Below, piece by piece: positions 56,507-60,409 of a stretch of DNA of 64,000 bases. Positions within the stretch are counted from its first letter, which is position 1, and every line of letters begins with the position of its first letter. The position numbers and the translations under genes were made by a program. The stretch is from Vulcanimicrobiota bacterium (lineage in GTDB: Bacteria > Vulcanimicrobiota > Vulcanimicrobiia > Vulcanimicrobiales > Vulcanimicrobiaceae): assembly GCA_963820825.1 (NCBI GenBank), contig CAWGBN010000001.1:15946-79945 (forward strand), read 5' to 3'. The notes below the pieces were generated by a model. That model was not told the DNA's origin and did no database searches. It saw only the letters and a list, made by a program, of their open reading frames with translations.

Positions 56507-58603
56507 TTATGCCGGTGCGAGTTTCTTGCCGGCAGACTTCGCGACGATCTCTTCCTCGACGCTCTTTGGCGCCTTCTCGTAATGCGAGAACTCCATCGTG
56601 TACGTCGCACGCCCTTGCGTCGCCGAGCGCATGTCCGTCGCGTAGCCGAACATCTCCGAGAGCGGCACGTGCGCGGTAATAACCTGCGCGCCGCCGGGCG
56701 CCTCTTCGGTCGCGTGGATCGCTCCGCGCCGCCGGCTCAGGTCGCCGTTGATCGCGCCCATGTACTCTTTCGGAGTCGTTACCTCGACCTTCATGATCGG
56801 CTCGAGGAGCACGGGACCTGCCGCGCGATTGGCTTCCTTCCAGGCCATCGAGGCCGCGATCTTAAACGCCATCTCCGACGAGTCGACCTCGTGGTACGAA
56901 CCGTCGAACGCTACCGCCTTGAAGTCCATCACGGGAAAGCCAGCGAGTACGCCGCTCTGTGCCGATTCGCGGATGCCCTCTTGGACGGCTTTCTGATACT
57001 CCTTGGGAACCGCACCGCCGACGATCTTCCACTCGAAGACGAATCCGGTGCCCGGCGACTGCGGCTCGACGCGTATCCAAACGTCGCCGAACTGCCCCTT
57101 ACCGCCGGTCTGACGGATGAAGCGTCCTTCCTTTTCAACGCTCTTGGTGATCGCTTCTTTATACGCAACCTGTGGTTTGCCGACGTTGGCATCCACCTTG
57201 AACTCGCGCCGCAGACGGTCGAGAATGATCTCCAAGTGCAGCTCGCCCATGCCGGCGATGATCGTCTGCTGCGTCTCTTCATCGGTGCGCATCCGGAATG
57301 TCGGATCTTCTTGCGCGAGCCGTGCGAGTGCCAGCCCGAGCTTATCTTGATCGGCTTTACTCTTCGGCTCGATCGCCTGATGGATGACGGGCTCCGGAAA
57401 GGTGATCGATTCGAGCGCGATCGGTGCGCGCTCTTCGCAGAGCGTGTCGCCGGTGCGCGTATCGGAGAGACCGACCGCGGCCGCAATATCGCCGGCGCCG
57501 ATCGAGTCGATATCTTCGCGATGGTTGGCGTGCATGCGCAGAATCCGGCCGATTCGCTCCTTGCGGCCGGTCCGGGTGTTGAGCACGTAGCTGCCTTTTT
57601 TCAGCACCCCGGAGTAGGCGCGGAAGTAGGTCAAGTTTCCGTACGGATCGGTTGCGATCTTGAACGCCAGCGCGCAGAACGGTTCGCCGTCGTCGGCCTT
57701 GCGCATCAACTCGTCACCGCTCTTCGGATCCCGTCCGACGATCGGCTTGGCCTCGAGCGGTGAGGGCATGTATTCGACGATCGCATCGAGCAACGGCTGT
57801 ACGCCTTTGTTCTTAAATGCCGACCCGCAGAGCATCGGGAGAACCGTTCCTTCGATCGTCGCCTTGCGCAGCGCCGTCTTCATGCGGTCGATCGGCAGCT
57901 CTTTGCCCTCGAAGAACATCTCGAGCAACTCGTCGTCCTGTTCGGCGATCGCCTCGACGAGATTGCGCCGCCACTCCATCGCGAGATCGCGCAGCTCCCC
58001 GCCGACGTCTTCCTGCGCCATCGTCGAACCGAGCTCGTCGGTATAGACGGTCTTCTTCATCGTGAAGAGATCGACGACGCCTTGGAACTTGTCTTCGGCT
58101 CCGATCGGAACTTGAATCGGCACCGCACGGGCTCCGAGCCGTTCGTGAATCTTCTCGACGACGTTGAAGAAATCGGCTCCAACTCGATCCATCTTGTTGA
58201 CGAAGATGATCCGTGGGACTTTATATTTGTTCGCTTGGCGCCAAACCGTCTCGGACTGCGGCTGCACCGCGGCAACCGAATCGAAGAGCGCGACCAAGCC
58301 GTCGAGGACGCGCAGCGAGCGCTCGACTTCGACGGTAAAGTCGACGTGACCGGGGGTATCGATAATGTTGATCCGCGTGTCGCGCCAGGTCGTCGCGGTC
58401 GCGGCCGAGGTGATCGTGATGCCGCGCTCCTGCTCCTGGACCATCCAGTCCATCGTCGCGGCGCCGTCGTGCACTTCGCCCATCTTGTGCACGCGTCCGG
58501 TAAAGAAGAGGATGCGTTCCGTGCAGGTCGTCTTGCCGGCGTCGATGTGCGCGGCAATGCCGATATTCCTCGTGCGTTCGAGCGGATATTCCCTTATAGC
58601 CAT
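56507..58603 (-). CDS. fusA: Elongation factor G
   Basis: [41 protein letters not shown]. Confidence 0.99.
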
Positions 58604-58621: not shown

Positions 58622-59092
58622 TTACCAGCGATAATGGGCGAAGGCTTTATTCGCTTCCGCCATTTTGTGCGTGTCTTCACGCTTCTTGATCGTCGCACCG
58701 GTATTGTTCGACGCGTCGAGCAGCTCCGCAGCGAGCTTCTCCTCCATCGAGCGGCCGCCGCGGGCACGAGCGAACCCGATGAGCCATCGCATCGCCATCG
58801 CCTGACGGCGGTCCGGACGGACCTCCATCGGCACCTGGTAGGTTGCGCCGCCAACGCGCCGGGGACGCACCTCGACCAGCGGCATCGCGTTGGAGAGTGC
58901 CTGCGAAAAGACTTCCATCGGATCGCGCCCGGTCTTCTCGGCGACGATCTCGAGCGCGCCGTACGTAATATGCTCCGCGGTCGACTTCTTGCCGCGCAGC
59001 ATCACTTTGTTGATGAAGCGCGCGAGCACTTTGGAGTTGAACTTCCCGTCGGGAAGAATTTGCCGCTTTGGAGCGGGACCTTTACGAGGCAA
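58622..59092 (-). CDS. rpsG: 30S ribosomal protein S7
   Basis: [29 protein letters not shown] start. Confidence 0.99.
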
Positions 59093-59121
59093 TCTAAGCG
59101 TTCCTTATAATTTCCGAAGGG

Positions 59122-59562
59122 TTACTTCTTCTTTTCGCGTTTGGCGCCGTACTTCGAGCGGCCTTGCTTGCGGTTCGCCGTGCCGGCCGTGTCGAGGGTA
59201 CCGCGGATGATGTGGTAGCGCACGCCGGGGAGATCCTTGACGCGTCCGCCGCGCACGAGGACGACCGAGTGCTCTTGCAGATTGTGACCGATCCCGGGAA
59301 TGTACGCCGTGACCTCTTCGCCGTTCGTTAGCCGGACGCGAGCGACTTTGCGCAGGGCCGAGTTCGGCTTCTTCGGCGTCACCGTCTTGACTTGCGTGCA
59401 GACGCCCCGCCGTTGCGGGTTGCCGGTCACCTCGAAGGTGCGCGTCGGCAAGTCGGGATGACCCGGCTTCGGACCGGTGAGAATCACGCGAAACGCGCGC
59501 GTCTTGACCTTCTGCTCGGTCTTCTCGCGCCCGCGGCGCACGAGTTGGTTGATTGTCGGAAT
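59122..59562 (-). CDS. rpsL: 30S ribosomal protein S12 (ATT start)
   Basis: ATT CCG ACA ATC AAC CAA CTC GTG CGC = (M)[30 protein letters not shown]. Confidence 0.98.
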
Positions 59563-59634
59563 TAGCTTGGCTCCTCGTTTCGGGGCGGTCCCATCACAAA
59601 CAACGGCCTCACCCGCAGGTGGGACCGAGCCTCA

Positions 59635-59663
59635 ACTATACCAAGGCCCTATTTTGTCGTCAA
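59635..59663 (-). promoter_or_regulatory. Putative sigma70 promoter of rpsL-rpsG-fusA
   Basis: TTGACG-17 bp-TATAGT with extended TG. Confidence 0.8.
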
Positions 59664-59710
59664 ATCCCGGCGTGGGACGGACGCTCGCTTGCTCCGACGC
59701 CGCCGGCCGC

Positions 59711-60409
59711 TTACCTTACATAGACGCTGTCGAGGAACTTCCAGAGCGCGTCGCAGGCCGCTTGCGTGGCTGCCAGCACCTCGGCTTGCCTCTCGGGCGA
59801 GTCGGCGGCGCGCTCGATCAGCCCCCACTCCGCCGCCGAGTGCGCGACGTCGGCCTTCTCGTGCACGGCGAAGAACTCGACGTCCGCCGCATCCTCGATG
59901 CCGTAGAAGCGGCGCAAGCCGTCGATCTTGACCGCGGCGATCGCCGGGACTTGGGATTCGAAGGCGTGGAGCGCGGCGAGCCCGGCATAGTAGGCCCGGT
60001 TGCGGCAGAGATCGGTAAACGTTTCGATTAGCCGTTGGGTCGCCGCGTTGGGGGCGGTTGCGGCGAGATCGCTCTCCGTCATCCCGAGCGCTTGCGCGAA
60101 ACGCTTCCAGAGTGCCGGGTGATTCTTCGGTCCGTACTCTTCCTCGATCAAGTTCTGCAGAATGGTCTGCCGCGCGGTGAGGTCGCTGCGCCCGTCGCCG
60201 TTGAAGTGCGGGGTTCGCGAGTGGACCGCGCTCAGGTAGGTCGGCTCGGCCAGAACGTGGTGGAGATACTGCCCCGCGTATCCGCGGAGCTGATCCAGTG
60301 AGAGTTCGCCCTTCGTCCAGGCGACGTAAAATGGGTGCTTGAGCAGGTGGCGCTCCGCGATGACGGCGCCGACCTGCGATTCAAACGATGTTGGCGACAA
60401 GGTATTCAT
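59711..60409 (-). CDS. CADD family (PqqC/TenA-like, heme-oxygenase-like dimetal) protein, putative pABA synthase
   Basis: HPFYVAWTKGEL, NLIEEE..NHPALW, FESQVPAIAAVKIDGL, FFAVHEKADVAH. Confidence 0.88.
   Translation of the reverse strand: MNTLSPTSFESQVGAVIAERHLLKHPFYVAWTKGELSLDQLRGYAGQYLHHVLAEPTYLSAVHSRTPHFNGDGRSDLTARQTILQNLIEEEYGPKNHPALWKRFAQALGMTESDLAATAPNAATQRLIETFTDLCRNRAYYAGLAALHAFESQVPAIAAVKIDGLRRFYGIEDAADVEFFAVHEKADVAHSAAEWGLIERAADSPERQAEVLAATQAACDALWKFLDSVYVR

Follow-up and report, generated by a model that had tools for sequence, protein, structure and literature searches.

The locus considered here raises a simple question, namely whether rpsL, the gene of ribosomal protein S12 (uS12), can begin at an ATT codon. 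It lies in a window of 64,000 nucleotides (the whole stretch of DNA that was analysed, G000:C1:15946-79945) from a Vulcanimicrobiota genome assembly (G000) of 2.98 Mb in 9 contigs, 85% complete and with 64% G+C. The first-pass annotation had noticed an ATT codon, 8 nt after a strong GAGGAG, in front of the conserved N-terminus PTINQLVR. Its coordinates are right, and the strand, which it left unstated, is the minus strand, on which rpsL runs from 59562 to 59122. The features on which the question turns are the following.

59122..59562, minus strand: rpsL coding sequence, uS12, 146 codons plus TAA, assigned by Pfam PF00164 and by identity with relatives
59560..59562, minus strand: ATT start codon of rpsL, strand read and translated
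59571..59576, minus strand: Shine-Dalgarno (SD) sequence GAGGAG, 8 nt 5' of ATT
59539..59541, minus strand: GTG (Val8), the start taken by callers that accept ATG, GTG and TTG only, with a 139-aa product

On the minus strand, GAGGAG, a spacer of 8 nt (CCAAGCTA, 59570-59563) and ATT follow one another as described, and the codons 3' of ATT (CCG ACA ATC AAC CAA CTC GTG CGC) encode PTINQLVR. The frame is closed upstream by the stop codon TGA 59634-59632, directly after the -10 box, and downstream by TAA 59124-59122. Translation of 59640..59119 finds no ATG, GTG or TTG among the 23 in-frame codons between the upstream TGA and ATT, which bears out the earlier claim that the frame offers no canonical start before this point. 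The 146-aa product matches Pfam PF00164 (Ribosomal_S12_S23) over residues 43-144 with an E-value of 3.9e-38 (130 bits against a cut-off of 22.3), and residues 1-146 are 98-100% identical in 22 other genomes of the genus.

Start codons of rpsL in related genomes, a comparison proposed in the first-pass annotation, divide the genus (Eremiobacterota, 91 genomes) into two main types. ATT precedes PTINQLVR in 43 genomes, TTG in 39 and CTG in one, and neither ATG nor GTG occurs at this place in any of 84 genus sequences (83 from a degenerate-pattern scan plus G263). The scan sought any codon starting with the degenerate base D followed by PTI[N/S]QLVR.GR and matched 82 of the 91 genomes; the split between ATT and TTG was counted by hand. 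The isoleucine codon of the 43 genomes is always ATT, never ATC or ATA, and G246 carries two rpsL copies that both have it. The CTG belongs to G263, in which GAGGAG and the 8-nt context are as in the TTG-type genomes G002 and G013, with a single change from T to C.

Across the family, a pattern specific for ATH matched 43 of 348 genomes, all of them ATT and all from a single genus among the 78; with the pattern reversed as a control, no genome matched. The association of an SD, ATT and PTINQLVR in 43 of the 91 genus genomes, against 0 for the control, is thus far beyond chance. ATT was not found in the 77 other genera of the family by this pattern, which requires ARY at residue 4 and is blind to serine encoded by TCN, as in g34 and g53. 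Eight loci from these two genera all have GTG, and a rescan of g34, the largest TCN-serine genus checked, matched 35 of 44 genomes with start codons all ending in TG; a CNN pattern, which has the same blindness at Ser4, gave no match in five TCN-serine genomes. A scan for V-T-N plus the motif in a phylum sample of 301 genomes matched 161, of which 150 were listed. Among the matches listed, ATT occurs in the source genus only (27 genomes including the source genome) and ATG or GTG elsewhere, so that no ATT start was found in the 20 other families sampled. Among the genomes tallied for family and phylum are the unpublished G036, G149, G140, G068, G059, G061, G210, G160, G081, G069 and G174, none of them of the ATT type. 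Finally, among 80 rpsL loci fetched from diverse bacteria, two fall outside the motif, and the remaining 78 start with ATG (46), GTG (20), TTG (11) or ATT (one, from a metagenome-assembled genome of the same group). In 78 of the 80, PT[IVF][NSQ]QL directly follows the start codon, which is the arrangement of the S12 of the source genome.

A closer comparison covered 23 genus genomes with an S12 match (22 relatives and the source genome), 11 with ATT and 12 with TTG. The 15 residues after the start are identical in 23/23 loci despite synonymous differences. An SD-like motif (GAGGAG, AAGGAG, GGGGAG or GGGAG) stands 6-10 nt before ATT in all 12 ATT-type loci, and the spacer between SD and start has diverged among genus loci, with ATT being kept. 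In 10 of the 12, no canonical or near-cognate codon lies in frame between ATT and the preceding stop, and in five the frame opens just 2-5 codons 5' of ATT. The two exceptions (L011 and L021) have canonical codons in frame further upstream, and the peptides encoded there are unconserved. Codon, context, conservation and absence of alternatives are all read directly from these genomes. They confirm, at the level of sequence comparison, that rpsL of the source genome starts at ATT 59560-59562, the S12 start position of other bacteria. An ATT start so defined is a feature of about half of one Eremiobacterota genus.

Upstream of rpsL and further along the operon, the following elements were identified.

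59658..59663, minus strand: -35 hexamer TTGACG of the predicted rpsL promoter, present in 23/23 genus loci
59635..59640, minus strand: -10 hexamer TATAGT with a 17-nt spacer and an extended TG, from a promoter scan and genus loci
59604..59627, minus strand: 5'-UTR element CGGTCCCACCTGCGGGTGAGGCCG, 24 nt, a predicted 5'-terminal hairpin, from folding and conservation
59562..59594, minus strand: out-of-frame mini-ORF of 10 codons, from ATG 59594 to TAA 59564-59562, with GTG options further upstream
58622..59092, minus strand: rpsG (S7), with its own AAGGA, 9 nt and a TTG start (PF00177, E 9e-67)
56507..58603, minus strand: fusA (EF-G), ATG start, recognised by its EF-G domains

The predicted promoter is the sole sigma-70-like site in 59000-60000, with 10 of 12 positions matching and TG before the -10 box, whereas shuffled sequences average 0.1 such sites. 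It implies a 5' UTR of about 65 nt from a presumed transcription start. Promoter and hairpin element are near-identical in 23/23 genus loci. In the centroid fold, the element pairs GGUC with GGCC and CACC with GGUG, and a scan of 59400-59800 against Rfam (E up to 10) gave sub-threshold chance matches only and no family. The predicted hairpin could be an mRNA-stabilising structure or an unrecognised ribosomal-protein leader. The fold of 59630-59530 as a whole has a z-score of 0.85, which indicates no special stability, and SD and ATT fall in an unpaired stretch of its centroid. The SD is preceded by a G/U-rich tract (GGCCGYTTKYGTGTG) that is also kept in other genera and families. Behind this single predicted promoter, the genes of S12, S7 and EF-G follow one another on one strand in the order of a str operon. 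The first-pass annotation had tied initiation of the str operon to the ATT codon; this holds for rpsL and not for the operon as a whole, since rpsG has its own SD and TTG and fusA begins with ATG.

Several rival explanations of the ATT codon have to be weighed. That ATT is a one-base sequencing or assembly mistake for ATG (or TTG), the caveat raised by the first-pass annotation, would gain some credit from the defects of the source assembly, in which, of 118 ORFs screened that match Pfam, 19 are domain fragments truncated at the frame opening, a pattern suggestive of indels or pseudogenes. These defects, however, are frame breaks and not substitutions, and a change from TTG to ATT takes two substitutions. 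Above all, the same ATT stands in 42 further species-representative genomes, all of this one genus, which refutes the caveat and leaves a mistake with a vanishingly small probability. In addition, a 151-nt contig from a DNA run (X1, depth 2, which may be the source sample) is identical to 59487-59637. No public run contains more than 0.23 of the sampled words, and the four that were compared are represented by contigs, not raw reads, and stem mostly from relatives. A contig from an RNA library (X4, record 30) spans 59351-59665 with 31 differences and 5 gaps and corresponds to the site of a relative, and is no proof of transcription or of the codon.

Translation might instead start at the downstream GTG 59541, giving an S12 of 139 aa that lacks PTINQL, with the upstream codons left untranslated. 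This GTG is canonical and in frame, and it is the start obtained by ORF finding restricted to ATG, GTG and TTG (139 aa beginning MRRGREK) and the form recorded by public pipelines. It lies, however, 29 nt past the SD without an SD of its own, and the seven codons 5' of it encode the universally conserved N-terminus of S12, which shows protein-level conservation with synonymous changes in the 23/23 genus loci. Moreover, the codon at this position is GTA or GTT in two ATT-type genomes (G281 and G283) and GTC in 4 of 12 TTG-type loci. A GTG start is hence highly improbable. Reinitiation represents another route, in which ribosomes finishing the mini-ORF would resume at the overlapping AUU and thereby evade the usual scrutiny of start codons. 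In the source genome, the TAA of the mini-ORF does overlap the A of ATT by one base (TAATT), but a stop overlapping ATT is found in 1 of 12 ATT-type loci, the source genome only, and the ATG of the mini-ORF is preceded by GAGG only, 12 nt upstream. Because the overlap is confined to one locus, reinitiation cannot be the general mechanism; it is an improbable explanation, and the overlap is probably coincidental.

The GTG form has left its mark on public annotation. Standard gene finders shorten S12 by seven residues, and the exact 139-aa sequence is recorded on 23 contigs. Within its 90% cluster, lengths vary between 137 and 161 aa, and the proteins begin with VRRG, LVRRG, MNQLV or L/MPTINQ or with upstream extensions; the calling of the S12 start is thus inconsistent. 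One NCBI entry of the cluster begins MNQLV, with the start placed on the Ile4 codon. A further entry (146 aa, beginning MPTINQ) agrees in sequence with an ATT-type genome; some annotation pipelines may already accept ATT at rpsL.

With ATT as the start, a mechanism for its use can be proposed. The conserved TTGACG-17-TATAGT promoter would produce the rpsL mRNA, and the strong GAGGAG, 8 nt upstream, would position the 30S subunit. The initiator fMet-tRNA would then pair with AUU through a mismatch at the 3' base, giving fMet-Pro-Thr-Ile-Asn-Gln-Leu, fMet decoding being presumed here. As a near-cognate codon discriminated by IF3, AUU would make initiation on rpsL intrinsically weak and dependent on the SD and on the level of IF3. 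In this genus, the gene stands on a weak codon (TTG, ATT or CTG) throughout, and its ATT would be part of a wider habit of the lineage, in which housekeeping genes carry AUU, AUA or CUG starts. From the sequence comparisons, it is very probable that ATT is the true initiation codon of rpsL, led by the SD and an instance of this habit, with initiation that is presumably weak and sensitive to IF3.

In an E. coli reporter, AUU initiates at about 1-2% of the level of AUG, according to the available text of the report (10.1101/063800). If such figures apply, ATT should perform very poorly as the start of a ribosomal protein made in abundance, and the strong SD, the strong promoter and the conserved 5' hairpin may compensate for its weakness. 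The available part of another study (PMC5499595) describes mRNAs with AUU and an optimised initiation region as less active in vitro and as poor competitors, especially in the cold and with ppGpp. The same source presents the AUU/AUC start of infC, the gene of IF3, as the target of IF3 autoregulation, with IF3 being abundant all the same.

The initiation machinery of the source genome appears conventional. The 3' end of its 16S rRNA carries the standard anti-SD CACCTCCT (context GGATCACCTCCTT), and its initiator tRNA has the C1xA72 mismatch and three consecutive G-C pairs in the anticodon stem. Since both are canonical, there is no hint of a degenerate fidelity apparatus. Its infC (C6:47403, plus strand, L142) displays GGAGG, 7 nt and ATA, with no canonical start before the conserved N-terminus. 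All 25 genus loci have ATA behind GGAG; the four loci from a sister family have ATC, and a single locus at class level (L171, unpublished genome G036) has ATT. The classical autoregulatory arrangement of IF3 therefore appears intact in the lineage, as judged from these loci. Because the non-canonical start of infC has been kept, discrimination by IF3 probably operates, likely including against the AUU of rpsL. The N-terminal variants of IF3, IAK.L and IARPL, do not track the type of rpsL start. Tuning of S12 synthesis by IF3 is plausible. Many infC genes of relatives also show a 3-codon out-of-frame mini-ORF that starts with ATG and whose TAG stop overlaps the ATA.

Near-cognate starts are also found on other genes of the source genome, in which an SD-based scan flagged several genes; some candidates were compared in five genus genomes (G022, G006, G231, G176 and G002). 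The ATP-dependent PEP carboxykinase gene pckA (PEPCK_ATP; G000:C5:77345, plus strand, L112/L199) displays AGAGGAGG, 6 nt and ATT in a frame that opens 10 codons upstream. None of these 10 codons is canonical, and the first GTG lies 32 codons downstream, inside the PEPCK_ATP domain. An Ile codon after AGAGGAGG is found in 23/23 genus loci, including species with TTG at rpsL, and is ATT in the 20 for which the codon was read; four loci certainly lack a canonical codon upstream, and at least one (L127) has an in-frame Met 9 codons upstream. A gene for an MGDG-synthase-like glycosyltransferase (G000:C1:14736, minus strand, L180), just outside the window, has ATT about 8 nt after GGAGAG, preceded by 40 codons none of which is canonical; 6/6 genus genomes, the source included, combine ATT with an SD-like motif (GGAG to GGAGGAG). 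In rho (G000:C9:84637, minus strand, L263), ATT stands where G231 and G006 have ATG, three other genomes falling outside the motif. No ATG, GTG or TTG occurs in the 96 codons before a Met within its N-terminal domain, and no obvious SD precedes the ATT. Lastly, parA/soj (G000:C6:210446, minus strand) has CTG 7 nt after AGGAG, the homologous codon being CTG in the source genome, G006 and G231, ATG in G176 and G002, and GTG in G022. As pckA, rho, the glycosyltransferase gene and parA are unrelated to the str operon, the ATT of rpsL looks like a habit of the lineage rather than a device of that operon.

Genome-wide counts in the source assembly are less clear-cut. Near-cognate codons behind an SD number 58 against 39.2 expected, with ranks 1, 2, 6 and 14 among 58 codons. 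After GC3 filtering, ATT comes first and CTG second of the 58, with no enrichment at a control spacing. This enrichment is confounded, as many matches stand just ahead of a canonical start, by 1-2 codons, and the spacers are rich in A and T. An unfiltered scan of all six-frame ORFs reveals no enrichment of ATT (3.0% vs 2.6%). A strong SD with a canonical start is found in just 348 of 2136 crude gene models, so that SD use is generally low and the SD of rpsL stands out.

The history of the ATT start was followed on a tree built by maximum likelihood from 30 alignment rows covering 1.9 kb of the str operon, with the start region left out. The ATT label requires five changes on this tree, of which the well-supported branches force only one, and it is clustered, as low a number being reached in 1 of 500 shuffles. 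Four well-supported subclades have members that share ATT, on end branches 0.035-0.12 substitutions per site long. The tree is compatible with one or several origins. Two substitutions separate TTG from ATT, and ATG is the sole functional codon one step from both. In neighbouring genera of the same family, rpsL commonly starts with GTG, TTG or ATG.

What these weak starts mean is a matter of two readings. In the main alternative to tuning by IF3, ATT is the real start without any regulatory meaning, a near-neutral variant that drifted in a slow-growing lineage tolerant of TTG, its weakness being offset by promoter, SD and mRNA stability. Sister species do alternate TTG, ATT and CTG with the same UTR architecture, near-cognate starts are scattered across unrelated genes, and the small share of crude models with a strong SD and a canonical start suggests relaxed initiation signals. 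This alternative is a substantial possibility, although short of an even chance. On the other hand, ATT has been kept while the adjoining spacer diverged, and none of the 84 genus sequences has ATG or GTG, even though ATG is the obligatory one-step intermediate and both codons are common nearby. This absence hints at selection for a weak rpsL start, with which the data are compatible without being proof of it. A broader proposal, tentative and rather doubtful at present, would have the lineage re-tune its selection of start codons, so that AUU, AUA and CUG serve routinely on roughly 1% or more of its genes, including those of S12, Rho, ParA, PEP carboxykinase and IF3. Kept off strong codons, rpsL would then make S12 an IF3-responsive brake on the assembly of 30S subunits, such a regulatory purpose being presumptive.

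Among known systems, the closest likeness is to infC of E. coli, in which an SD-led AUU, AUA or AUC start on a gene of the translation apparatus is conserved without a canonical alternative. There, however, the regulator is the product itself and the feedback is closed, whereas no sensing of its own start codon is known for S12; furthermore, the ATT of rpsL is limited to about half of one genus, whereas the non-canonical start of infC is widespread. The near-cognate AUU of pcnB, the poly(A) polymerase gene of E. coli, keeps translation of pcnB low, but pcnB encodes an enzyme of low abundance, in contrast to S12, which the ribosome requires stoichiometrically and in large amounts. According to the available text of Hecht et al. 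(10.1101/063800), pcnB and infC are the only two confirmed non-canonical starts in E. coli, and the pcnB start alternates among phyla. The str operon of gammaproteobacteria offers a third likeness, as the part of PMC5499595 available describes weak start codons conserved on tufA and fusA. Those are GUG and UUG, canonical alternatives accepted by IF3, unlike the AUU of rpsL. A literature search, whose coverage stopped short of subscription journals, turned up no paper describing rpsL with an AUU start and none about start codons in Eremiobacterota. AUU starts are thus already known, and S12 is a new and somewhat surprising case.

An abundant, stoichiometric ribosomal protein made from AUU in 43 species runs against the notion of AUU as a codon set aside for genes that regulate themselves or are of low abundance. 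The occurrence of ATG, GTG, TTG, CTG or ATT at a single homologous position, under a shared UTR architecture, offers a natural series for measuring start strength and IF3 stringency outside model organisms. If tuning by IF3 is true, it would link the level of an initiation factor to the production of 30S subunits. On the practical side, callers limited to ATG, GTG and TTG will likewise misplace the starts of pckA, rho, parA, infC and other genes in the phylum. For a large clade of uncultured soil bacteria, such errors carry over into protein families, phylogenomic markers and predicted structures.

A Pfam screen of the source assembly covered 239 GC3-filtered ORFs, from the 2136 crude models, with a frame open for at least 7 codons before the first canonical codon. 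Of the 118 with a match, the domain begins after the canonical codon in 74 and at least 5 residues before it in 25, and 19 are fragments. One of the early-domain cases is a release-factor gene (G000:C7, L238), in which 25 residues of the PCRF domain precede any canonical codon of the frame; we take this gene to be prfB, and a programmed +1 frameshift presumably explains the early domain most simply. Apart from prfB, the 25 early-domain ORFs need checking against relatives, given the frame breaks of the assembly. Fragments beginning mid-profile at frame openings include SRP54, Cpn60, Cas1, KdpD and AdoHcyase (loci L180-L270), and such fragments suggest either many frameshifts in the assembly or many pseudogenes.

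The S12 protein itself shows an insertion of about 25 residues after residue 20 (59410-59500, minus strand), between the N-terminal arm and the PQRRGVC motif. This insertion is conserved across the class, and Clostridia and Chloroflexi carry insertions of different sequence at the same place.
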